The notes beneath the pieces were generated by a model. The model was not told where the DNA came from. It was given only the letters and a program-made list of their open reading frames with translations, and did no database searches. A program made the position numbers and the translations under genes. 29,091 bases of DNA, from NCBI GenBank assembly GCA_964480435.1, contig CAYZSS010000010.1:1-29091 (forward strand), given 5' to 3'. The DNA is from an uncultured archaeon (GTDB lineage: Archaea; Iainarchaeota; Iainarchaeia; Iainarchaeales; 0-14-0-20-30-16). Positions 2,305 through 29,091 of this stretch are shown here, piece by piece; the first letter of the stretch is position 1; the number at the start of each line of letters is the position of its first letter.

Positions 2305-2378
2305 AGGATCACTTTTTATTAATTTGCCCAGGAATAATGTTTATAGCTAAGTATGCTTGAGCGAAGCGAAACATACAA

Positions 2379-2411
2379 TTTTGGGTAACTTACCCTTTAT
2401 TAAAAGGGCAG
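2379..2411 (+). repeat. tRNA-flanking hairpin motif, copy A (ends at position -1 of tRNA-Ser)
   Basis: TTTTGGGTAACTTACCCTTTATTAAAAGGGCAG. Internal stem ACCCTTT/AAAGGGT-like (CCCTTT..AAAGGG). Near-identical to copies at 2550 and 20449. Confidence 0.85.
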
Positions 2412-2494
2412 GCAGGGGTAGCGAAGTGGCTAACGCGTCAGACTGCTAATCTGATCTCCGTAAGGAGGCGAGGGTCCGAATCCCTCTCCCTGCG
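2412..2494 (+). tRNA. tRNA-Ser (anticodon GCU), class II with long variable arm
   Basis: Manual cloverleaf: acceptor GCAGGGG/TCCCTGC (one G-U), D arm GCG..CGC, anticodon stem TCAGA/TCTGA with loop CTGCTAA. Variable arm CTCC-GTAA-GGAG, T arm GAGGG-TCCGAAT-CCCTC, discriminator G. No encoded CCA. Confidence 0.9.
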
Positions 2495-2495
2495 T

Positions 2496-2529
2496 CCAGC
2501 CTTTTGAAAAAAGGCTAGGTTTGCCAAAA
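2496..2529 (-). repeat. Degenerate inverted copy of the hairpin motif (copy F) abutting the tRNA-Ser 3' end
   Basis: Minus-sense TTTTGGCAAACCTAGCCTTTTTTCAAAAGGCTGG aligns with the motif: TTTTGG-CAA-C-TA, a T-run/A-run hairpin, then a C-G end. Confidence 0.5.
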
Positions 2530-2549
2530 CCTCATGTAGAGGGATTCAT

Positions 2550-2583
2550 TTTTGGGCAACTTACCCTTTTCCTAAAAGGGCAG
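2550..2583 (+). repeat. tRNA-flanking hairpin motif, copy B
   Basis: TTTTGGGCAACTTACCCTTTTCCTAAAAGGGCAG, 34/34 identical to 20449..20482. Confidence 0.9.
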
Positions 2584-2606
2584 TTCGAATCCCCCTCTCT
2601 GCGTCT
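2584..2606 (+). pseudogene. Diverged duplicate of the tRNA-Ser 3' end (T-loop to discriminator region)
   Basis: TTCGAATCCCCCTCTCTGCGTCT matches 2475..2497 (TCCGAATCCCTCTCCCTGCGTCC) at 19/23. It carries a canonical TTCGAAT T-loop. No matching 5' tRNA portion lies adjacent. Confidence 0.6.
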
Positions 2607-2837
2607 CTATTCTTTCTTTTTTGGAAAAAAGAAAGCATAAGTAAGAAGCATTTTCTAAAAGAAAATCTTCTGACCCTCAAACTTTTTCTAGGAAGAAAAA
2701 ACTTTGTTGGTTCACCAAAGAAAAAACACGAGACGCTAAAGTTTGCAAAAGAAACCCGGGGGTATAAAGCTCCTTAATTTAGTTTGCTAAACGATAAAAC
2801 AAAAAATTAATGTTTAGTTTGATTTAGGTCTGATTTT

Positions 2838-6122: not shown

Positions 6123-7523
6123 ATGGCAAAAACATATATGAGTCATACTAAATACATAATTTACCAAAAATTTAAAGTAAAAGGTGTAGTAGAAAAACAT
6201 GATATTATTGGTGCAATATTTGGACAAAGCGAAGGTTTAACCGGGGAAGATTTGTCCCTTAAAGAATTGCAAAGTAATGGTAAAATCGGAAGAATTGAGC
6301 TTGTAGTTGAATCAAAAAATGGTGCAACTGAAGGAACAATAGAAATACCATCAAGTGCAGATATGGTTGAAACTGCAATTTTAGCAGCAACTATTGAAGC
6401 AGTTGATAAAGTTGGTCCTTGTGATGCTGAATTTCTTACTGAAAAAATAGAAGACACAAGAACACAGAAAAGAAAGAATATTGTTACAAGAGCAAAATCC
6501 TTGTTAGCTATTTTGATAAGAGACCAAATCCCAGACAGTCAAGAAATAACTAGGGCTGTTGAAGAGGAAGTAAGGTCTTCAGAAATAACTAGCTACGGAC
6601 CAGATAAAATTCCTTGTGGACCATCAATAAATGATGCAGATGAAATTATACTGGTTGAAGGAAGAGCGGATGTAATAAATCTACTAAAATATAATATAAA
6701 AAATGTTGCTGCTTTTGGTGGTTCAAACATTACAAAAACAGTAGTAGATTTATGTAATAAGAAAACTACTCTTGTGTTTATAGATGGAGATAGAGGTGGA
6801 GAATTAAATCTAAAGAAGTTAATGCAAATGACTAATGTAGATTTTGTTGCAAGAGCGCCTCCTGGTAGAGAAGTAGAAGAACTGGCTAAGAAAGAAATTC
6901 TAATGTGCCTAAAGAAAAAAATGCCTATTGTTCAAACAAAAAAAGAAGGCAGCAATGATATAGAATTATCTTATTTAGATAACCAGTTGCCAGAAGAAAC
7001 TTATAAAGAAAAAGAGCCTCAAGTAAAAGTTATTGAAATAAATAAGCCTTTTGATCGTTCAAAAGAAATTGAAAAACCAAAAGTAGAAGAAAAACCAAAA
7101 AGTTTTGAAAGACCAAAAGAGGCAGAAAGGCCGAAATTTGAGCCAAGACCAAGAACTAATTTCCCTGAAAGAGGTGCACCTAAACCTTTTGAAAGAAGTT
7201 ATCCTCCCAGAGAAAGAGAGCCTAAGCACGACAGCAATAGAAAACTGATTGAAGATGTGGATGTGTTTGATGAATTGAATAAACTTAAAGGTAAATTCAA
7301 AGCAAACTTGTACGCTACAGGAAAATTAGTTGAAAGTGTGCCTGTAAGGGATTTAATTAAAGCCATGAAAGAAAACAAGAATGTTTCTATGATAATCTTT
7401 GATGGAATTATAACAAAGAGACTGGCTGAAATGGCAAAAGGCAAGGGCGTAAAAGAAATAGTTGGAGTAAAAGTAGGAAAAATGAGTGCAATAAAAGGAA
7501 TAAATATTACTTCTTTGGAGTAG
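6123..7523 (+). CDS. dnaG: Archaeal DnaG primase-like protein (TOPRIM) with a low-complexity insert
   Basis: Archaeal DnaG N-terminal block IIGAIFGQSEGL. TOPRIM motifs ILVEGRADVINLL and FIDGDRGGEL. Pro/Lys/Glu/Arg-rich insert at about 6993..7244. Confidence 0.85.
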   Translation: MAKTYMSHTKYIIYQKFKVKGVVEKHDIIGAIFGQSEGLTGEDLSLKELQSNGKIGRIELVVESKNGATEGTIEIPSSADMVETAILAATIEAVDKVGPCDAEFLTEKIEDTRTQKRKNIVTRAKSLLAILIRDQIPDSQEITRAVEEEVRSSEITSYGPDKIPCGPSINDADEIILVEGRADVINLLKYNIKNVAAFGGSNITKTVVDLCNKKTTLVFIDGDRGGELNLKKLMQMTNVDFVARAPPGREVEELAKKEILMCLKKKMPIVQTKKEGSNDIELSYLDNQLPEETYKEKEPQVKVIEINKPFDRSKEIEKPKVEEKPKSFERPKEAERPKFEPRPRTNFPERGAPKPFERSYPPREREPKHDSNRKLIEDVDVFDELNKLKGKFKANLYATGKLVESVPVRDLIKAMKENKNVSMIIFDGIITKRLAEMAKGKGVKEIVGVKVGKMSAIKGINITSLE

Positions 7524-7655
7524 TATTTAAAATTCTTTTTTCCTTTCTTTTTTTATATTAAATTTTATAAGTTTATATAACTTAGTTTATTTGTTTGTCT
7601 TATTTTTGGATTAACTTTATATAGTAAAATAAACTAAAATTATTAGTGATATTTT

Positions 7656-8333
7656 ATGCCTGTAATGAATAATGGTTTTGCCCAGATTCCAAACGGAAAC
7701 AAAAAAACCGCTTTGGGTTTAGCAGCATTTATTTTAGTTATTAGCGGGGCAGCAGGATTTATAAGGTATTTAGATGATGAAAATAATAAGTTTTTATTGT
7801 CTGACTCCGCAGTGCTAGGTAAAGCAACCAAAGAAAGTTTGGCAAAAATACATAGTCGCCAAATAATAGAATTAGAATCTATCTTTGGTGTAAGCATTGA
7901 TCATTCTGTTAGTGCTAATTTATTTTTGAAGAATATAGAACCCAAAAAACTGATTTTTAACTTAATTAAATTAAGGTTAAGAAGAGAAATAAACCAGCAA
8001 GTTCTTCCTGATTGGTTAACCCCTATTTATGATAAAATAAACTCTTCTAGTAAAGAAGATCTAATGTATCTTTATGATAGGGTTAAGAAAATAAAAAGTT
8101 TTTCTCACGAATTAAAAGACCCGGATCAATTAAGAGATTGGCGTAAATTTAAACATGAGAGAAAAAAGAAGGTTAATAAATTTCAGACTAACTTAATAGA
8201 AAGAGAAAAAGTAAGAAGAATGGTTTTAAATGCTCGTGCAAAAAGATTTGGCGAAAAAAGATTTGAAAGGCCTGGAACAGGAAGATCCGCTTCTTTAGAA
8301 AGAACAAGATTTAGACCTCAACATAGGATATAA
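7656..8333 (+). CDS. Hypothetical membrane-anchored protein, paralog 1
   Basis: N-terminal hydrophobic helix ALGLAAFILVISGAAGF. Colinear similarity to 8510..9190 (IFG, IEPK, LP..P.Y.KINS, ARAKR). Identical C-terminus ERTRFRPQHRI. TAGTGAT Shine-Dalgarno-like site upstream. Confidence 0.7.
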   Translation: MPVMNNGFAQIPNGNKKTALGLAAFILVISGAAGFIRYLDDENNKFLLSDSAVLGKATKESLAKIHSRQIIELESIFGVSIDHSVSANLFLKNIEPKKLIFNLIKLRLRREINQQVLPDWLTPIYDKINSSSKEDLMYLYDRVKKIKSFSHELKDPDQLRDWRKFKHERKKKVNKFQTNLIEREKVRRMVLNARAKRFGEKRFERPGTGRSASLERTRFRPQHRI

Positions 8334-8509
8334 TATCCCATTTTTCTTTTATTTTTTGATAGCTGGTTTTTTAAACTAAATACTTATTTGATATCTGATT
8401 AAACTACTGTCTATGTTGGAACGAAAAAAGACAATTGATTTAATACAGCAACACTAATTTTCCAATAATTTTATATATCATAATAAAGTATATTTATTGG
8501 TGATATTTT

Positions 8510-9190
8510 TTGGTTAAAGAATTTATTCCTGATGTAAAAACTAGTTCTTCTGGTTCGTTGCCTTATTTTTTGATTGGAGTTTCGCTTTTGGGGTTCTTGA
8601 TAACACTTGGAATTATAAAAAACAAAATCGAATATGCAAAACTAGTAAAAAAACAATTATCCTCAAAAACAATAGATTTAATGGAAGATAATATTACTAA
8701 ACAACTGACTGCTTTGGAAAAAATATTTGGTGATGAAACTATTTTTAATACAAAACTAATTAAAATGTTAAAAGAACAAGCAATAGAACCTAAGGAATTA
8801 GTTATTGACTTAATAAGAGGCAGAGGAAAAATAAATCCACAAATTCTGCCCGAAGAAATCGTTCCTTTGTATAGAAAAATCAATTCTCTGGAGCCTAAGG
8901 AATTAGAAAAATTCTATTATGAAGTAAATAGGCTTAAAGGAGTAGAATTAGAACTAACTAACCCAGAACAAAAAAAAGAATGGTATGAATTTAGAAAACT
9001 TAGGGAAGACCGGGCAAAACAACAAGTAAATGAAATCCAATCCAGAATGATGAAACAAGGGCGTGTAAAAGAATTAGTTCTAAGGGATCGTGCTAAAAGA
9101 GCAGAAAGATATAAAGCTCGTGAAACTCCCAGAACCGGAAGACTAGCATCTGCTGAAAGAACAAGATTTAGACCTCAACATAGGATATAA
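8510..9190 (+). CDS. Hypothetical membrane-anchored protein, paralog 2
   Basis: TTG start preceded by GGTGAT. N-terminal helix YFLIGVSLLGFLITLGII. Colinear with paralog 1 and shares the same C-terminal 11 aa. Confidence 0.7.
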   Translation: MVKEFIPDVKTSSSGSLPYFLIGVSLLGFLITLGIIKNKIEYAKLVKKQLSSKTIDLMEDNITKQLTALEKIFGDETIFNTKLIKMLKEQAIEPKELVIDLIRGRGKINPQILPEEIVPLYRKINSLEPKELEKFYYEVNRLKGVELELTNPEQKKEWYEFRKLREDRAKQQVNEIQSRMMKQGRVKELVLRDRAKRAERYKARETPRTGRLASAERTRFRPQHRI

Positions 9191-17701: not shown

Positions 17702-17832
17702 TTCCATTACTAGCTTTTTTTATAACCATTTCTTTAGATCTTGCGAAATTTCTTTTTTTATAGTAGTCCAAACAATTATATACCTTGTTTTTGTTATATA
17801 TATGGTCTTATCTAGACGCGTAGGTGATTTTT

Positions 17833-19434
17833 ATGAATGCTGAACAAAAGAAATTATACAATACTTTAAACGAGCATAGAAAAGCATATGTTAATTTTGA
17901 TATCCCTGATGAAAAAAATGGGGAATATCTTCTGTGTGTATTTCACTTTTTGCCAAATAAAAAGTTAAATGTTTTACAAGCTGCAGCAGAGATTTCTGCA
18001 GAATCATCAACCGGAACAAATTTTAAAGTAAGTACTGAAACAGCATTTTCAAGAAAAATGAATGCTTTAGTTTACAAAATAGATACAAAAAAAGAATTAG
18101 TTTGGATTGCATATCCTTGGAGATTGTTTGATAGGGGCGGAAATATACAAAACATACTTACTTACGTGGTAGGAAATGTTTTAGGAATGAAAGAAGTAAA
18201 TGCTTTAAAATTATTAGATATGTGGATACCACCGGCAATGTTGGAACAGTATGATGGGCCATCTTATACTCTTGACGATATGAGAAAATATTTGAATGTA
18301 CATGGTAGACCTATTTTAGGAACAATAATTAAACCAAAAATGGGTTTAACTTCCGCTGAATATGCTGAAGTTTGTTATGATTTTTGGGTTGGTGGAGGGG
18401 ACTTTGTAAAAAATGATGAGCCCCAGGCAAACCAAGATTTCTGCCCTTTTGATAAGATGGTTTTGCATGTAAAACAAGCAATGGCTAAAGCAGTAAAAGA
18501 AACAGGCAAGAAAAAGGTGCACTCATTTAATGTATCTGCTGCGGATTTTGACGAAATGATAAGAAGATGTGAATTAATTAGAAATGCTGGATTTGAGCCA
18601 GGAAGCTATGCCTTTTTGATTGATGGCATTACTGCTGGTTGGATGGCTGTCCAAACATTAAGGAGAAAGTATCCTGATGTGTTTATACATTTCCACAGGG
18701 CCGCACATGGCGCTTTTACTAGACCTGAAAATGCATTTGGATTTAGTGTTCTGGTATTGTCTAAATTTGCAAGATTAGCTGGAGCAAGTGGAATACACAC
18801 AGGAACAGCAGGAATAGGAAAAATGGAAGGTACTCCTGATACAGATATAATTGCTGCAAAAGAGATTGAGAACCTAAAAACAACGGGACCATTTTTTGAG
18901 CAATCTTGGTCAAAGATTCCAGAAAGAGATAAAGATATGATTAAACTTGTGCAGGAAGATTTGGCACACCATGTAATTCTTGAAGATGATAGTTGGAGAG
19001 GGGTAAAGAAATGTTGCCCAATAATATCAGGTGGATTAAATCCAACTTTATTAAAGCCATTTATTGATGTAATGGGCAGTGTAGATTTTATTACTACGAT
19101 GGGGGCAGGCTGTCATGCTCATCCTGATGGTACTCAGGCAGGTGCTAAAGCTTTAGTGCAGGCCTGCGAAGCATACAAAAAAGGAGTATCAATAGAGGTA
19201 TATGCAAAGACCCACAAAGAATTAGCAAGAGCAATTGAATTCTTTGGAAAAAATAAAACAAAAACTAAGGATAAGAAGCCAACTAAGACAAAAAAAATAA
19301 GTAAACCAAAAAAAGCTTTGCCAAAGAAAATAACTAAAAAAATAAAAAAAGTTACTAAACCTAAAGTAGTAAAAAAGGTAGTAAAAAAAACACCAAAGAA
19401 AAAAGCAGTAATTAAAAAAGTAAAAAGGAAATAA
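17833..19434 (+). CDS. rbcL: RuBisCO large subunit, form III / II-III type, with a lysine-rich C-terminal extension
   Basis: AESSTGT, GNVLGMK, KPKMGL, GGDFVKNDEP (carbamyl-Lys/Asp/Glu), HFHRAAHGA, GIHTGT, SGGLNP and GAGCHAHPDG are all present. AGGTGAT Shine-Dalgarno site before ATG 17833. Tail from about 19249. Confidence 0.9.
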   Translation: MNAEQKKLYNTLNEHRKAYVNFDIPDEKNGEYLLCVFHFLPNKKLNVLQAAAEISAESSTGTNFKVSTETAFSRKMNALVYKIDTKKELVWIAYPWRLFDRGGNIQNILTYVVGNVLGMKEVNALKLLDMWIPPAMLEQYDGPSYTLDDMRKYLNVHGRPILGTIIKPKMGLTSAEYAEVCYDFWVGGGDFVKNDEPQANQDFCPFDKMVLHVKQAMAKAVKETGKKKVHSFNVSAADFDEMIRRCELIRNAGFEPGSYAFLIDGITAGWMAVQTLRRKYPDVFIHFHRAAHGAFTRPENAFGFSVLVLSKFARLAGASGIHTGTAGIGKMEGTPDTDIIAAKEIENLKTTGPFFEQSWSKIPERDKDMIKLVQEDLAHHVILEDDSWRGVKKCCPIISGGLNPTLLKPFIDVMGSVDFITTMGAGCHAHPDGTQAGAKALVQACEAYKKGVSIEVYAKTHKELARAIEFFGKNKTKTKDKKPTKTKKISKPKKALPKKITKKIKKVTKPKVVKKVVKKTPKKKAVIKKVKRK

Positions 19435-19456: not shown

Positions 19457-20275
19457 TTATTTTTTTGCTAAATAAATTGGAAAAATAAAATCAAGCTTGT
19501 AGCTTTTGCTTGTTATTGTTATTCTTTTTGAATTCAACTTGGATCTTGTAATAATTTGCGATATTTTGTTTACTTCTTTCGCTGCAAAATTGTATCTTTC
19601 TATATGTTCTTTTTCAGTAATAATTAAGTTTTTTGACTTTCCAATTAATTTTAATTCTTTAATACCTGCTTTGCTGTAAAGCTTATTAATATCCTCTTTT
19701 GACTGAAAATGTCTTTTCCCAATAAGTTTGTTTGATGCATAAATTTTGTCTGCTAAATTTCTTTCTTTGTTTGTTGGCATTGCAGCAACACAATTAAAGA
19801 ATAATCCATTTTCAGCTAATTGACTTTTGAGATTTTTTAATGCTTTAATTTGTAGTCTTTCTCTGTAAATATAATCTAAAGCAGAACGCATAATTATTAT
19901 ATCAAATTTAATTTCTGAGTTGTATGACAAAAAATCAGCAAGAATTTTAGTTGTCTTTTTATTTTTATTTTGATTTAAGTGCTCTTGCGAAATATCAAGT
20001 AAGTAAAGTGCAGGTAAAAATCCTTTTTTTTGTAATGCCTCCACTAATTTTTCGCCTAATAATCCATTGGCGCCGCCAGCATAAAGAATGTTTAGTTTTT
20101 TATTTTTTAGAGTTTTTGCTTTTTGTATTTCTGGCAAAACTGCTTTGATAAATGCATTAATGTTTGTAGGGTCAGAAAAATAAGAGTTATAAGTCTTTTT
20201 CCAGTTCTTTCCAAGTACCTTCTTGTCCCTTTTTAGGTTGTTTTCAGAGATCTTGCTAATTTTTATCTTTTGCAT
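19457..20275 (-). CDS. Class I SAM-methyltransferase-like protein
   Basis: ILYAGGANGLLG (motif I-like), LLDIS, FDIIIMRSALDYI, ENGLFF. Confidence 0.5.
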   Translation of the reverse strand: MQKIKISKISENNLKRDKKVLGKNWKKTYNSYFSDPTNINAFIKAVLPEIQKAKTLKNKKLNILYAGGANGLLGEKLVEALQKKGFLPALYLLDISQEHLNQNKNKKTTKILADFLSYNSEIKFDIIIMRSALDYIYRERLQIKALKNLKSQLAENGLFFNCVAAMPTNKERNLADKIYASNKLIGKRHFQSKEDINKLYSKAGIKELKLIGKSKNLIITEKEHIERYNFAAKEVNKISQIITRSKLNSKRITITSKSYKLDFIFPIYLAKK

Positions 20276-20306
20276 AAAAAAGAAAAATAAGGAAAAGAAT
20301 AAAAAG

Positions 20307-20378
<72 letters not shown>

Positions 20379-20410
20379 ACTGCCTTTTTCCAAAAAGGCA
20401 AGTTGCGAAA
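20379..20410 (-). repeat. Degenerate hairpin motif copy D abutting the tRNA-Thr 5' end
   Basis: Minus-sense TTTCGCAACTTGCCTTTTTGGAAAAAGGCAGT is followed directly by G1 of tRNA-Thr. It shares GCAACTT, a hairpin and CAG with the 34-nt motif at nearly the same distance from the tRNA start as copy A. Confidence 0.65.
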
Positions 20411-20448
20411 AAGGCATATCCCTCTGGGATATCGCGGTGGCTCAGTTG

Positions 20449-20482
20449 TTTTGGGCAACTTACCCTTTTCCTAAAAGGGCAG
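20449..20482 (+). repeat. tRNA-flanking hairpin motif, copy C
   Basis: TTTTGGGCAACTTACCCTTTTCCTAAAAGGGCAG, 34/34 identical to 2550..2583. Confidence 0.9.
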
Positions 20483-20502
20483 CCACTGAGCCACAGAAGC
20501 AC
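20483..20502 (-). pseudogene. Orphan duplicate of tRNA-Thr positions -2 to 18
   Basis: CCACTGAGCCACAGAAGCAC is 20/20 identical to 20361..20380. Similarity continues into the adjacent GCCTTTTT..AAAAAGGC hairpins, about 45 nt in total. Confidence 0.7.
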
Positions 20503-20704
20503 GAGCCTTTTTAGAAAAAAGGCAAAAAGTCAGTTTGCCTAACAAACTGCTTTAGGCCCTCAAACAATTTGCCTAAAGCAAATTGCTTTGTTGGCACCGT
20601 CTGCCAAAAACACGAACCTAAGTTGCCCAAGAAAGGCGTCTCGCAATTTTATTAATATACTATAACGACAAAAAGTTTATATCGTTGTGTGATTTCTATT
20701 ACAT

Positions 20705-21172
20705 ATGGTAAGTTATAGTCTTGTCTTTGGTGATCCTGACAAAAGAATTGGTAATATATTGACAGAGGCACAAATAAGATCTTTAAATGAACTTATTGAG
20801 AAAAAAGGGGTGATCTATTCGCCAGAAGATAAAGTGCAGGGTCTTTGTTGCTTTTTAGTAAAAGGTGCCGTTGTTACTGGTTATCTTTCTTATGGAAAAA
20901 GTGATGCTTTAGATATTTTCTTTGTAGAATCAAGAAAAAAAGAAAGAGAGAGCTTCAGGCTTTTTTCTAAAGGGAAGTCCATTGGTCTGTTTTTAATTAT
21001 CAGCGCTCTTAAAAAACATAACCTTAGAAAGGTAAGTTGGAGCAGTCTAACCCCTTCAGGGGAGAGGCTTTATGCCAGGGCTTTAGAAAAAAATATAGCA
21101 AACAGAGTTAATGATGATACTTGTATACTTAGAAAGGAACCTCCCAAACGATTAAAGATAATTCCAAAATGA
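20705..21172 (+). CDS. Hypothetical protein
   Basis: 155-aa ORF with TATA-like AAAGTTTATAT about 25 nt upstream of the ATG (probably leaderless). No family recognised. Confidence 0.5.
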   Translation: MVSYSLVFGDPDKRIGNILTEAQIRSLNELIEKKGVIYSPEDKVQGLCCFLVKGAVVTGYLSYGKSDALDIFFVESRKKERESFRLFSKGKSIGLFLIISALKKHNLRKVSWSSLTPSGERLYARALEKNIANRVNDDTCILRKEPPKRLKIIPK

Positions 21173-21212: not shown

Positions 21213-21638
21213 ATGAAACAATTTAGGATTTATAAGGCAAACTCTCAGAAGAATGGTACTGCACTATCATTGGATTTTAATAAAGAAAAACAATCCTTAT
21301 TTCTGGAATTTGCTAAACAGAAGCCGGATGATACATTTGATTGGGAGAAAAAATTAACTTTTAAATTCTCTTTAATCGAACTTGCAAAAGTATGTGTATT
21401 TTATAAAAACAAACTACCAGAATTGAATTTCTTTCATGATCCCTCTAAAGGGGAATATAAGGCAAACTTTAAGAATGCTGTTCTGAAACTTACAAAAGGA
21501 ATGAATAACTATTCTTTAAAAATAAATCAGCAAGAACTTGATGGTTCAATTAATAGTATAATAATTAACATAAATGAAGAAGAAATGTATTCCTTATGCT
21601 TGTTGTTTGATAAAGCAATACAGGATAGTTATTTTTAG
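21213..21638 (+). CDS. Whirly-like ssDNA-binding protein
   Basis: Colinear with the plant Whirly core. FDWEKKLTFKFSLIELAKV resembles YDWSRKQVFSLSVTEIGSI. NFFHDPSKG resembles CEFFHDPFKG. AVLKLTK and the C-terminal INEEEMYSLCLLFDKAI also align. Confidence 0.6.
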   Translation: MKQFRIYKANSQKNGTALSLDFNKEKQSLFLEFAKQKPDDTFDWEKKLTFKFSLIELAKVCVFYKNKLPELNFFHDPSKGEYKANFKNAVLKLTKGMNNYSLKINQQELDGSINSIIININEEEMYSLCLLFDKAIQDSYF

Positions 21639-28962: not shown

Positions 28963-28997
28963 TGAACTGGTACTTAAGTGAAGTTTTTGAATAACCT

Positions 28998-29017
28998 ACT
29001 CTTTTTTTGAAAAAGAG
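28998..29017 (-). terminator. T-run hairpin immediately 3' of tRNA-Phe
   Basis: Minus-sense CTCTTTTTCAAAAAAAGAGT follows the discriminator base directly. tRNA-Thr is followed by the same CTCTTTTT. Confidence 0.5.
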
Positions 29018-29091
29018 TGGGAAGAGAGGGATTTGAACCCTCGACACATAGGTCTTCAGCCTATTGCTCTTCCGGACTGAGCTACCTTCCC
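29018..29091 (-). tRNA. tRNA-Phe (anticodon GAA), 5' end coincides with the window edge
   Basis: Reverse complement is GGGAAGG-TA-GCTC-AGTCCGGAA-GAGC-A-ATAGG-CTGAAGA-CCTAT-GTGTC-GAGGG-TTCAAAT-CCCTC-TCTTCCC-A. No encoded CCA. Confidence 0.9.

Follow-up and report, generated by a model that had tools for sequence, protein, structure and literature searches.

The origin of tRNA introns, tRNA fragments and split tRNA halves in archaea is a long-standing question for which the evidence has been mostly indirect. SSV1, with its 44-bp attachment (att) site, and elements of the pNOB8 type are bordered by direct repeats of tRNA termini. In Caldiarchaeum subterraneum, a 5′ tRNA fragment and intron gain at tRNA-Thr(GGU) have been tied to a 1.8-kb insertion that bears a recombinase, in a paper that also proposes a link to the gain of tRNA introns (Sugahara et al. 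2012, PMC3293823). Here we describe two loci in a 29,091-nucleotide (nt) stretch of DNA from an uncultured archaeon of the Iainarchaeota (contig CAYZSS010000010.1; the whole stretch is called the window) at which a small non-coding cassette, ending in a 34-nt motif that also stands next to the organism's own tRNA genes, lies between direct repeats of the end of the adjacent tRNA gene. We favour, with a probability of roughly 0.55, a composite explanation: the motif would be a promoter-like element of tRNA flanks, the cassette a small inverted-repeat unit that on arrival copied 20-22 nt of the neighbouring tRNA gene, and the hairpins that follow it a conserved intergenic array.

The closest precedent for these loci is the set of tRNA-terminus direct repeats at the borders of archaeal integrated elements, and the nearest single case is the tRNA-Thr(GGU) of Caldiarchaeum. 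As at the borders described for Caldiarchaeum, SSV1 and pNOB8, an intact, reconstituted tRNA stands beside a displaced repeat of its own 5′ or 3′ terminus, the two flanking an insert, and one of our cases involves the same tRNA-Thr(GGU) species and likewise a 5′ fragment. Unlike the Caldiarchaeum insertion, the insert is about 20 times smaller, non-coding, devoid of a recombinase and made of the host's own tRNA-flank motif. The repeats measure 16-22 nt, unlike those of SSV1 (at least 44 nt), and, unlike what is found for integrated elements, one target is the end of a protein gene and the same unit forms whole introns in relatives. A limited full-text search of the literature found no published description of the motif or the cassette in DPANN archaea.

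The two sites are referred to as locus 1 or W1 (the tRNA-Ser site, with module 1) and locus 2 or W2 (the tRNA-Thr site, with module 2). L-numbers such as L068 and L073 denote contigs or loci from public genomes and metagenomes, and L096 is the metagenome-assembled genome (MAG) GCA_028710695.1. At each site a mirrored motif, a spacer and the motif itself follow one another, forming a cassette of 87 nt (2497-2583) at locus 1 and of 102 nt (20381-20482) at locus 2, bounded by direct repeats of 22 nt and 20 nt, respectively (Table 1). The right-hand motifs of the two cassettes are identical at 34/34 positions, where the chance expectation is 0. An earlier reading of this DNA (the original prediction) had described the sequence directly 3′ of the motif as a variable slot; it had not recorded that these 20-22 nt copy a tRNA end, that variants of the motif abut both tRNAs, or that 10-nt inverted repeats flank the motif. 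At locus 1 the copy is a relic that differs by 4 substitutions and a 2-nt indel from the functional tRNA-Ser 3′ end, which is itself identical to that of L096.

Duplications of the same kind accompany the motif elsewhere. When about 30 distinct motif copies were scanned for flanking repeats, matches of 14/14 were found at W2 and L024, 13/14 at L068 and 12/14 at W1; random positions on the same contigs gave 14/14 in 0/680 trials and at least 12/14 in 2.8%. In L024 (1196-1300), a 68-nt insert ending in the motif lies between perfect 16-nt direct repeats, AGAAGATGAAGTAATT, that comprise the last codons and the stop codon of a protein gene; a tRNA-Thr(GGT) is located 85 nt further downstream of this insert. 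L068 contains two tandem copies of the motif plus a 17-nt tRNA 3′ fragment, followed by the module. Duplication lengths vary among W1, W2, L068 and L024 (22, 20, 17 and 16 nt, respectively), and the right end of the insert, …GGCAG, is constant among the events; W1 and W2 have mirrored-motif and motif ends, and no clear left terminal repeat was found in the L024 and L068 inserts. Because the L024 duplication is at the end of a protein gene, we regard gene-end duplication as a general by-product of the arrival of a motif piece, which calls for no tRNA-targeting guide.

These findings bear directly on the guide-RNA layout suggested by the original prediction. In that scheme the motif hairpin would be a protein-binding handle and the 20-22-nt slot would direct a guide or antisense RNA to the neighbouring tRNA or its gene, and the order of a conserved hairpin, about 20 variable nt and conserved 3′ hairpins does have such a form, as does a locus 2 slot that is perfectly antisense to tRNA-Thr 1-18. 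At locus 1, in contrast, the slot is sense and has decayed relative to its source, and the supposed handle turns out to be the general tRNA 5′-flank motif, which precedes whole tRNAs as well as the ribosomal protein gene rpl24e. Since the slot duplicates an adjacent gene end in either orientation, and duplications of 16-17 nt flank motif inserts elsewhere, including the protein-gene end in L024, the pattern fits target duplication and not a guide. Reading of W1, W2, L068 and L073 showed no consistent C/D or H/ACA boxes and Rfam gave no such match. The absence of a nuclease gene nearby, already remarked upon in the original prediction, extends to guide-binding proteins; the genes near both loci are Pus10, methyltransferases, ThiI and an orphan. 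We therefore consider a guide function highly improbable.

A related genome carries a counterpart of locus 1 that has no insertion. Synteny between L096 and the window extends beyond 15 kb, with the gene order radical SAM, Memo, tRNA-Ser, Pus10, ThiI, a PF1765-like gene and Toprim, and L096 has one more gene, for an aminoacyl-tRNA synthetase, ahead of Pus10. The L096 tRNA-Ser(GCT) is one base different from that of the window, has a motif variant upstream, and is directly followed by TCTGTC, the T-run hairpin TTTTCTTTCTTTTccAAAAAGAAAGAAAA and CCTAAGTTTGCTAAAGAAAG; both the cassette and the tRNA fragment are absent at this gene. The L096 3′ flank aligns with a score of 22 to the flank that follows the relic (2606-2670) and of only 8.5 to that following the functional tRNA, which means that the relic is the original 3′ end of the tRNA, still joined to its natural flank and shifted by some 110 nt through insertion and duplication. 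That the relic has decayed while the functional end is intact is as expected of a dead copy. At locus 2, the perfect 20-nt repeat suggests a more recent event.

According to the explanation that we favour, the cassette (mirrored motif, spacer, motif) would have inserted between direct repeats copied from the end of the adjacent tRNA gene, leaving the gene intact and the distal repeat copy (2584-2605 or 20483-20502) as a non-functional leftover. At locus 2 the inner arm of the cassette would now serve as the upstream motif of tRNA-Thr. The T-run hairpin and the second to fourth hairpins beyond it (hp2-hp4) would mostly be pre-existing intergenic sequence outside the cassette, and at locus 1 the start of this series would be orthologous to the natural tRNA-Ser 3′ flank of the related genome. 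In relatives, the layout of mirrored motif, spacer and motif inside tRNA genes would constitute long introns. One lineage offers a series, from an intact tRNA without insertion (the MAG) through a cassette with a relic end (the window) to a cassette as an intron (relatives), and this series makes the insertion model testable.

Known integration systems offer comparisons for how such a cassette might have moved. Casposons produce target duplications of 14-15 bp and prefer tRNA 3′ ends, and CRISPR arrays show repeat-length duplications; the long target duplications and tRNA 3′ ends seen here are similar, and the long and variable duplications are reminiscent of target-primed or Cas1-type integration. 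Unlike in casposons, there is no Cas1 gene, the duplication length is variable and the element is only about 100 nt long. Miniature inverted-repeat transposable elements (MITEs), the bacterial REP, BIME and BOX repeats and 'mobile promoters' are small, non-coding, hairpin-rich intergenic units. They resemble our loci in their modular hairpins, in the inverted-repeat ends of two of our cases and in the placement of a promoter-like piece before unrelated genes. They differ in that our inserts have no fixed-length duplication and no conserved left end, with 2 copies in 29 kb that are near-identical only in the motif. In particular, neither inverted termini common to all copies nor a target duplication of fixed length, as expected of a MITE mobilized by a DDE transposase, was found.

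The direct repeats of tRNA termini at both borders also raise the possibility that the loci are att-site scars, left by integrase-mediated integration of a virus or plasmid whose body was later deleted down to about 100 nt. Such repeats are the classic border of archaeal integrated elements, and the Caldiarchaeum tRNA-Thr(GGU) has a 5′ fragment upstream of the gene (PMC3293823). What lies between the repeats in the window is 87 and 102 nt of non-coding DNA, without integrase or element genes, and none are present nearby, the flanks being syntenic housekeeping genes. Deletion would also have had to leave just 68-102 nt at each of four independent loci, always ending precisely in the motif; one target, in L024, is not a tRNA; and, as the core of an att site has to be in the element beforehand, unrelated targets are hard to account for. 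An origin as att scars consequently appears quite unlikely.

The layout of the cassette recurs inside tRNA genes of relatives. When exons were joined in silico, ARAGORN called tRNA-Gln(TTG) in L086, tRNA-Trp(CCA) in L037, tRNA-Asp(GTC) in L058 and tRNA-Leu(TAA) in L073. Rfam tRNA matches span the motif in L037 (1670-1851) and L058 (973-1124), and the Rfam tRNA model gave no match to the unjoined long-intron genes of L086 and L073. The introns of these four genes measure 100-190 nt and share a common plan: the 5′ exon is followed by a hairpin and an inverted box, one or more further hairpins, the motif, 2-10 nt and the 3′ exon. The first hairpin is T/A-rich in L086 and L037 and has the non-T/A sequence CATTGCaaaaGCGATG in L058. 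The tRNA-Leu(TAA) of L073 (7268-7465) has an intron of about 115 nt with the conserved upstream hairpin, GTATGCTTGAGCGTAGCGAAACATAC, and a full motif that ends 7 nt before the 3′ exon, so this intron holds a complete standard tRNA 5′ flank. No bulge-helix-bulge (BHB) structure was identified by inspection in these introns. Judging from this shared architecture, the window cassette is the same kind of object as that which interrupts the tRNA genes of relatives.

Related introns in other archaea provide a partial parallel. In the Thermoproteales, transposition or gain of tRNA introns was reportedly proposed by Fujishima et al. in 2010. As there, related introns occur in different tRNA genes and positions, which implies spread within a lineage. 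The Thermoproteales introns are mostly shorter than 50 nt and are defined by a BHB, whereas those described here are 100-190 nt long and their ends are the inverted-repeat tRNA-flank motif; unlike in the Thermoproteales, the unit also occurs outside tRNA genes, with target duplications.

The intron-bearing relatives suggest a further alternative, that the fragments in the window are relic exons: tRNA-Ser would once have had an intron at position 53/54 and tRNA-Thr one at about 18-20, each intron having the build of mirrored motif, spacer and motif as in relatives, and both genes would later have been made continuous by gene conversion or recombination with a processed copy. The repaired gene would have been left with the former intron and an orphan exon at its side. 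The cassettes share their architecture with the Gln, Trp, Asp and Leu introns, both relics obey the rule that the motif precedes a 3′ piece and the mirrored motif follows a 5′ piece, and the 10-nt inverted copies could be old intron segments that paired with an exon. ARAGORN still recognizes a tRNA-Ser when the body of that tRNA is joined to the relic 3′ end, and in L058 a degenerate motif and a second tRNA-Asp 3′ end lie downstream of the gene, as at locus 1. Against this history, both repeats extend 2 nt past the mature tRNA (TC at locus 1, GT at locus 2), which points to genomic duplication and not to a processed copy; the L024 duplication is at the end of a protein gene, where intron logic fails; the locus 2 tRNA lies at the exact standard distance from its motif, which repair would have had to achieve by chance; and the tRNA-Ser of the related MAG is continuous, without trace of an intron. 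We regard relic exons as decidedly unlikely, though less easily dismissed than an att scar.

A bolder extension of the composite explanation is that the cassette is a self-propagating unit of terminator and promoter that creates tRNA introns and adjacent split tRNA genes; we consider this speculative and doubtful. If true, landing at the edge of a gene would duplicate the gene end and leave a relic, as in the window, and landing inside a tRNA gene would yield two adjacent transcription units, one for the 5′ piece, which stops at the mirrored motif's T-run, and one for the 3′ piece, driven by the motif. The pieces would be joined by the broad-specificity splicing endonuclease of DPANN archaea and a ligase. 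The intermediate so far missing between tRNA genes with introns and split tRNA genes at dispersed sites would be such 'split genes in cis', and the unit would supply a concrete mechanism for the origin of both tRNA introns and split tRNAs. In the intron-bearing genes of the relatives, T5-T6 runs are present after the 5′ exon and the motif is present before the 3′ exon; as imperfect inverted repeats, the motif and its mirrored copy could pair, and they would lie outside the RNA if transcription starts at the 3′ edge of the motif. As to split tRNAs in the usual sense, the fragments in the window duplicate parts of tRNAs that are already complete, and the pieces in L086, L073, L037 and L058 do complete a tRNA but lie adjacent to one another.

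The 34-nt motif is the standard element immediately 5′ of tRNA genes in this Iainarchaeota/Diapherotrites-like lineage. It consists of a T-run, GGGCAACTTA, a T/A palindrome and CAG. Degenerate-pattern scans, one of public genomes and one of metagenomes, yielded the approximately 30 distinct true copies, told from others by the prefix TTTTGG(G)C or TTTTCGC. Scanning of the genome collection, whose GTDB representatives do not include the source genome, found a single locus, L001; scans of viral contigs for the motif and for the box pair found chance matches in coding regions only. Within the window, matches to the motif profile are confined to tRNA loci. In several metagenomes, ARAGORN places the tRNA start 0-1 nt past the motif for Ser, Thr, an intron-bearing Met, two Gly genes, Asp and Ile, so that, with gene position as a proxy for the transcription start site, the motif is at a fixed distance from seven unrelated tRNAs. 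In L032, the motif is followed at once by GGAGGAATGAAAATG, with GGAGG and then ATG, which opens the rpl24e gene (Pfam L24e, E = 6.5e-23); the sequence after the L027 motif is AGGTGGATTAAATG, with AGGTGG and ATG. Since tRNAs and Shine-Dalgarno-like sequences begin right after the motif, transcripts most simply start at its 3′ edge, and on these positional grounds the motif is most likely a compact promoter for genes of the translation apparatus. Relative to tRNA position +1, GCAACTTA occupies -28 to -21 and the T-run -34 to -31; protein genes of the window have TTTATATA about 35 nt before the ATG (repeat family D1). The motif marks stable-RNA transcription units and at least one ribosomal-protein unit in a lineage without cultured members, and could reveal unannotated RNA genes.

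Nanoarchaeum equitans offers a precedent for such an arrangement: a conserved promoter lies at a fixed distance from its tRNA genes, transcription starts at the tRNA 5′ end, and some of its tRNAs are encoded as split halves. Its box A (TTTAAA) is located 26 nt upstream of tRNA genes, and stretches of T serve as terminators (Randau et al., PMC3491384). The loci described here resemble those of N. equitans in having T-runs right after tRNA pieces and a fixed-distance element before both tRNAs and pieces, the 3′ pieces of the relatives' tRNAs being preceded by the same element as whole tRNAs. Unlike in N. equitans, no canonical TATA is apparent at -26, and a GC-rich box and a T/A palindrome reach to -4; the halves are adjacent and not dispersed, and no complementary GC-rich leader and trailer were identified. 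By analogy, the motif may indicate that tRNA transcription starts at the mature 5′ end, as it does in Nanoarchaeum.

Several further copies of the motif deserve mention. A hairpin nearly identical to that upstream of the tRNA-Ser motif (Table 1) precedes the motif in L077 and L081 and lies within the L073 tRNA-Leu intron. In L039 (minus strand, ~6400-6460) and L079 (740-815), two motifs stand in tandem with nothing between them but an 18-nt hairpin, whose TTTAT loop is conserved and whose stems vary (GTGCAACtttatGTTGCAC; GCCGGGCtttatGCCCTGC), and hairpins of this TTTAT-loop type also precede the motif in L037, L049, L068 and L078. GC-rich sequence that is not tRNA and has no Rfam match at the gathering score follows the motif in L053 (minus strand, the 170 nt next to the motif), L048 (968-1100) and L023 (minus strand); in L053 it starts with UAUGAUGC, which is C-box-like. 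These three sequences may belong to stable RNA genes, as yet unannotated, that the motif drives.

The mirrored motif comprises a T-run/A-run palindromic hairpin followed by TA(A/G)GTTTGCCAAA, the reverse complement of the 5′ part of the motif. It occurs downstream of tRNA-Ser and tRNA-Phe in the window, of tRNA-Ile in L077 and of tRNA-Ser in L096. Archaeal RNA polymerase terminates at runs of T5-T6, and the T-run/A-run palindrome after tRNA 3′ ends is probably a terminator. The palindrome at 2612-2635 is a probable bidirectional terminator. Both modules end in inverted copies of the 5′ part of the motif, as the original prediction had noted, and the box family of the degenerate copy at 2738-2755 is also present in L077 (TAAGTTTGCCAAAGAAA) and L096 (TAAGTTTGCTAAAGAAAG). 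The inverted box follows the same family consensus as the motif's 5′ part, two central mismatches between them being constant. Pairing of leader and trailer around whole tRNAs, as in an rRNA-style processing stem or a BHB, was considered and set aside, inspection having shown no locus-specific covariation.

Two tRNA genes with mirrored-motif flanks may be recorded in their own right. The tRNA-Phe(GAA) at the end of the window (minus strand) is followed by the hairpin CTCTTTTTcaaAAAAAGAG and TAGGTTATTCAAAAAC at 28975-29016, a flank like that of tRNA-Ser, its upstream side being outside the window. In L082 (3056-3202, minus strand), the 3′ end of an intron-bearing tRNA-His(GTG) abuts a perfect mirrored motif, and 14 nt past it begins a gene whose N-terminal peptide, by peptide reading alone, resembles histidyl-tRNA synthetase; tRNA-His and its likely cognate synthetase would be adjacent there.

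Beyond the distal repeats, the two modules contain the hp2-hp4 series, and the original prediction was correct that they are homologous, with the same elements in the same order and orientation; the homologues in L068 and L073 anchor the relation. In each module the first hairpin and the box after it correspond to the mirrored-motif flank, and the core from hp2 to hp4 forms a conserved unit separate from it. Aligned with each other, modules 1 and 2 show 73% column identity with many indels (nhmmer E = 0.007, weak alone); L068 matches module 1 with E = 3.5e-12 and L073 3097-3175 matches module 2 with E = 2.5e-6. CCCTCAAAC has exact copies in the window at these two loci only, and no further copies of the boxes or the core were found in the window. 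Perfect hairpins with stems of at least 7 bp number 5 in 2498-2700 and 6 in 20381-20585, or 11 in about 400 nt, compared with 19 in the remaining 28.5 kb once the anticodon arm of tRNA-Thr is set aside. A covariance model, R1, of the kind that the original prediction had called for, was searched against 263 kb and found homologues outside the window as well: the four full copies, W1 and W2 among them, scored 83-91 bits, a weaker copy lies upstream of the L073 tRNA-Leu (E = 2e-5), other weaker copies lie downstream of tRNA-Met in the organism of L001, L041 and L047 (E = 3e-4 to 9e-3), and nothing else was detected. The core is always between two co-directional units and upstream of the second. 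Partial copies sit between tRNA genes; in L068 the core follows the motif and a different tRNA fragment; and in L073 (3109-3197) it lies between a gene that we take, from the end of its peptide, to be secY-like and the gene that follows; no tRNA is present there, and the upstream side has just a degenerate remnant of the motif.

Covariation in the third hairpin, on which the original prediction had based its claim of a selected RNA structure, is genuine and extends to other metagenomes. Over the four full copies, the 12 pairs of hp3 are formed in 97.9% of cells, 5/12 change on both sides, and the outer stem is CAAA..TTTG in W1 and W2 but GAAA..TTTC in L068 and L073. None of 500 shuffles (0/500) reached the observed covariation score, and slid controls collapsed. 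The pair counts cover hp3 and part of hp4, the MAFFT alignments of hp2 and hp4 being out of register. The step from covariation to a single-stranded RNA is not favoured: stems are nearly all Watson-Crick, and the two strands fold alike (z = -1.35/-1.45 for module 1 and -3.3/-2.4 for module 2). Furthermore, hp2 and hp3 of module 2 resemble tandem copies of one unit, and L073 7100-7215 contains pieces of the core in other orders. Together, these properties suggest an array of palindromes that acts on DNA or on both strands, and our best guess is that the hp2-hp4 core is a terminator or insulator array.

The competing view takes the hp2-hp4 core, either alone or together with the tRNA fragment, for a structured non-coding RNA in its own right or for a cis-acting leader of the gene downstream, driven by the motif and selected for its fold. 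The compensatory changes in hp3, outer stem included, speak for this view, as do the element order and the boxes (CCCTSAAAC and CTTTSTTGG) retained across at least three organisms, by 4 full copies and about 3 partial ones. A perfect, top-scoring motif faces the core in W1 and W2, and a motif copy also does so in L068; the core always precedes a gene on the same strand, at no more than 25 nt from the Shine-Dalgarno sequence and ATG in L073 and L001; and the modules contain no conserved small open reading frame (ORF). On the other side, the T5-T6 runs after the fragment (2620-2625 and 20508-20512) should halt the archaeal polymerase before it reaches the core, the near-pure Watson-Crick stems favour folding of neither strand, the tandem-like and reordered pieces are as in palindromic repeat arrays, and the covariation statistics derive from 4 sequences. 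No known RNA family was matched, as the original prediction had supposed: in the Rfam scan that it had proposed, only the three tRNAs pass Rfam 15 gathering scores in the window, and permissive E-values over 2300-2900 and 20250-20750 gave nothing near a gathering score, snoRNA and H/ACA families included. A structured RNA is, in our view, an unlikely but serious candidate.

Several observations weigh against the composite explanation. The locus-specific 10-nt inverted copies of the fragments (2538-2547 and 20437-20446) are not predicted by plain insertion. In a fold of 2496-2605, the spacer segment pairs with the fragment across the motif (z = -2.8); at locus 2, GTGGCTCAGT is a perfect complement of the repeat ACTGAGCCAC, and in a fold of 20361-20502 (minus strand) the fragment pairs with the spacer segment (z = -4.1). 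Locus-specific inverted repeats around the motif are absent from L068 and L058. The 10-nt copies may stem from folding back during the event, or from a former helix between intron and exon. Left insert ends are not conserved, duplications of 16-22 nt misfit a classic (DDE) transposase or a fixed att core, and the window encodes no enzyme able to move the cassette. For locus 2, the search for an orthologous empty site was negative: orf155 of this locus has no homologues, the neighbourhoods of five RuBisCO homologues are not syntenic, and the methyltransferase adjoining the locus is not on record. A tRNA-Thr(GGT) is present in one of these neighbourhoods, L098, whose lineage lacks the motif. Strain-level empty sites were likewise not found; all contigs with an identical Pus10 or orf155 either match the loci at 99.7-100% identity or break off within them. 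No canonical TATA is apparent at about -26 in the motif, an A/T-rich palindrome lies at -17 to -7, and the promoter role is argued from position. The 34/34 identity of the motif at the two loci, where the remainder of the cassettes and modules differs and the locus 1 fragment has decayed, suggests selection or gene conversion acting on the motif, and whatever the identical copies drive may thus perhaps be functional. Core order, boxes and pairing are kept across organisms beyond what a mere terminator needs, and, as the core of locus 2 is upstream of tRNA-Thr, a natural tRNA 3′ flank cannot explain both copies.

Table 1. Features of the two loci, with positions in the window; hp, hairpin.
Feature	Positions	Strand	Remarks
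Upstream hairpin GTATGCTTGAGCGAAGCGAAACATAC	2351-2376	+	Ends 2 nt before the tRNA-Ser motif
Motif variant TTTTGGGTAACTTACCCTTTATTAAAAGGGCAG, putative promoter	2379-2411	+	Abuts tRNA-Ser 5′ end with 0 nt gap (ARAGORN); profile E = 8.9e-9
tRNA-Ser(GCT), functional copy	2412-2494	+	ARAGORN; Rfam tRNA 59.3 bits; near-identical to L096 tRNA-Ser
Direct repeat copy 1, locus 1: tRNA-Ser ~54-73 + 2 nt (TCCGAATCCCTCTCCCTGCGTC)	2475-2496	+	12/14 ungapped vs 2584-2605
Mirrored motif, left arm of cassette 1: T/A-palindrome hairpin GCCTTTTGAAAAAAGGC + TAGGTTTGCCAAAA	2497-2529	-	Profile match 2530-2500, E = 4.7e-4
Cassette 1 spacer	2530-2548	+	2538-2547: AGAGGGATTC, perfect inverted copy of GAATCCCTCT in tRNA-Ser; read from sequence
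34-nt motif TTTTGGGCAACTTACCCTTTTCCTAAAAGGGCAG, right arm of cassette 1	2550-2583	+	Profile E = 2.8e-11, best motif score in window; repeat family D5
Direct repeat copy 2, locus 1: relic tRNA-Ser 3′ fragment TTCGAATCCCCCTCTCTGCGTC	2584-2605	+	Diverged sense copy; slot of the original prediction
T-run/A-run palindromic hairpin	2612-2635		10-bp stem, T6 run; orthologous to L096 hairpin TTTTCTTTCTTTTccAAAAAGAAAGAAAA
Module 1 core	2645-2731	+	Covariance model R1 90.5 bits; homologues L068, L073
Module 1 elements	hp2 2645-2670; CCCTCAAAC 2674-2682; hp3 outer stem 2678-2706; CTTTGTTGG 2702-2710; hp4 2707-2718; AAAACACGA 2723-2731	+	
hp3 inner stem, module 1: TTTTTCT/AGAAAAA	2683-2700		
Degenerate inverted copy of motif 5′ part TAAAGTTTGCAAAAGAAA	2738-2755	-	Read from sequence
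tRNA-Thr(GGT), functional copy	20306-20378	-	ARAGORN; Rfam tRNA 70.9 bits
Direct repeat copy 1, locus 2: antisense of tRNA-Thr 1-18 + 2 upstream nt (CCACTGAGCCACAGAAGCAC)	20361-20380	+	Family D14; 14/14
Motif variant TTTTTCGCAACTTGCCTTTTTGGAAAAAGGCAG(T); on plus strand, left arm of cassette 2	20381-20412	-	Profile E = 6.9e-10; tRNA-Thr start 1 nt later
Cassette 2 spacer	20413-20448	+	Hairpin ATATCCCTCTGGGATAT 20416-20432; GTGGCTCAGT 20437-20446
34-nt motif, right arm of cassette 2	20449-20482	+	Identical to 2550-2583; profile E = 3.6e-11
Direct repeat copy 2, locus 2	20483-20502	+	Exact duplicate of 20361-20380, antisense tRNA-Thr 5′ end; slot of the original prediction
T-run/A-run palindromic hairpin GCCTTTTTAGAAAAAAGGC	20505-20523		Partial motif-profile matches on both strands
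Module 2 core	20527-20615	+	Covariance model R1 82.6 bits; homologous to L073 3109-3197
Module 2 elements	hp2 20531-20549; CCCTCAAAC 20557-20565; hp3 outer stem 20561-20590; CTTTGTTGG 20586-20594; hp4 20591-20607; AAAACACGA 20607-20615	+	
hp3 inner stem, module 2: CAATTTGC/GCAAATTG	20565-20585		
Inverted copy of motif 5′ part TAAGTTGCCCAAGAAA	20619-20634	-	Partial profile match 20630-20619, minus

The window encodes Pus10, ThiI, a DnaG-type Toprim protein, a form III RuBisCO and other archaeal housekeeping proteins. The nearest homologues of its Pus10 have 58% and 53% identity; the latter, third in rank and the sole named one among the top matches, is from a MAG of 'Candidatus ainarchaeum sp.', and other named matches are mostly 'Diapherotrites'. 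On this basis we treat the organism as an Iainarchaeota/Diapherotrites-like DPANN archaeon. ARAGORN and Rfam identify three tRNAs, the third, besides those of the two loci, being the tRNA-Phe(GAA) at 29017-29091 (minus strand). Among public assemblies of the same population (L029, L087-L089, L092 and L093), several end inside 2475-2610 or 20360-20500, and short-read assembly apparently breaks at tRNA loci because of the duplicated tRNA ends and motif copies. In practical terms, these repeats break metagenome assemblies at tRNA loci.

Some neighbouring genes have features of their own. A 155-aa protein (orf155, 20705-21172) has 0 homologues outside its own population among 5.8 billion proteins and precedes a gene for a 141-aa protein (21213-21638) that matches the Whirly domain (PF08536, E = 1e-9). 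The form III RuBisCO ORF (17824-19434) encodes 536 aa from a GTG; its homologues are mostly ~475-500 aa long and cover only ~88% of it, which makes a true start further downstream probable. Finally, region 7601-9190 contains tandem paralogous genes, 7656-8333 and 8510-9190, without a Pfam match, whose upstream regions are homologous over 58 nt (78% identical, with TTTATATA) and whose 3′ ends are homologous over 70 nt (83% identical).

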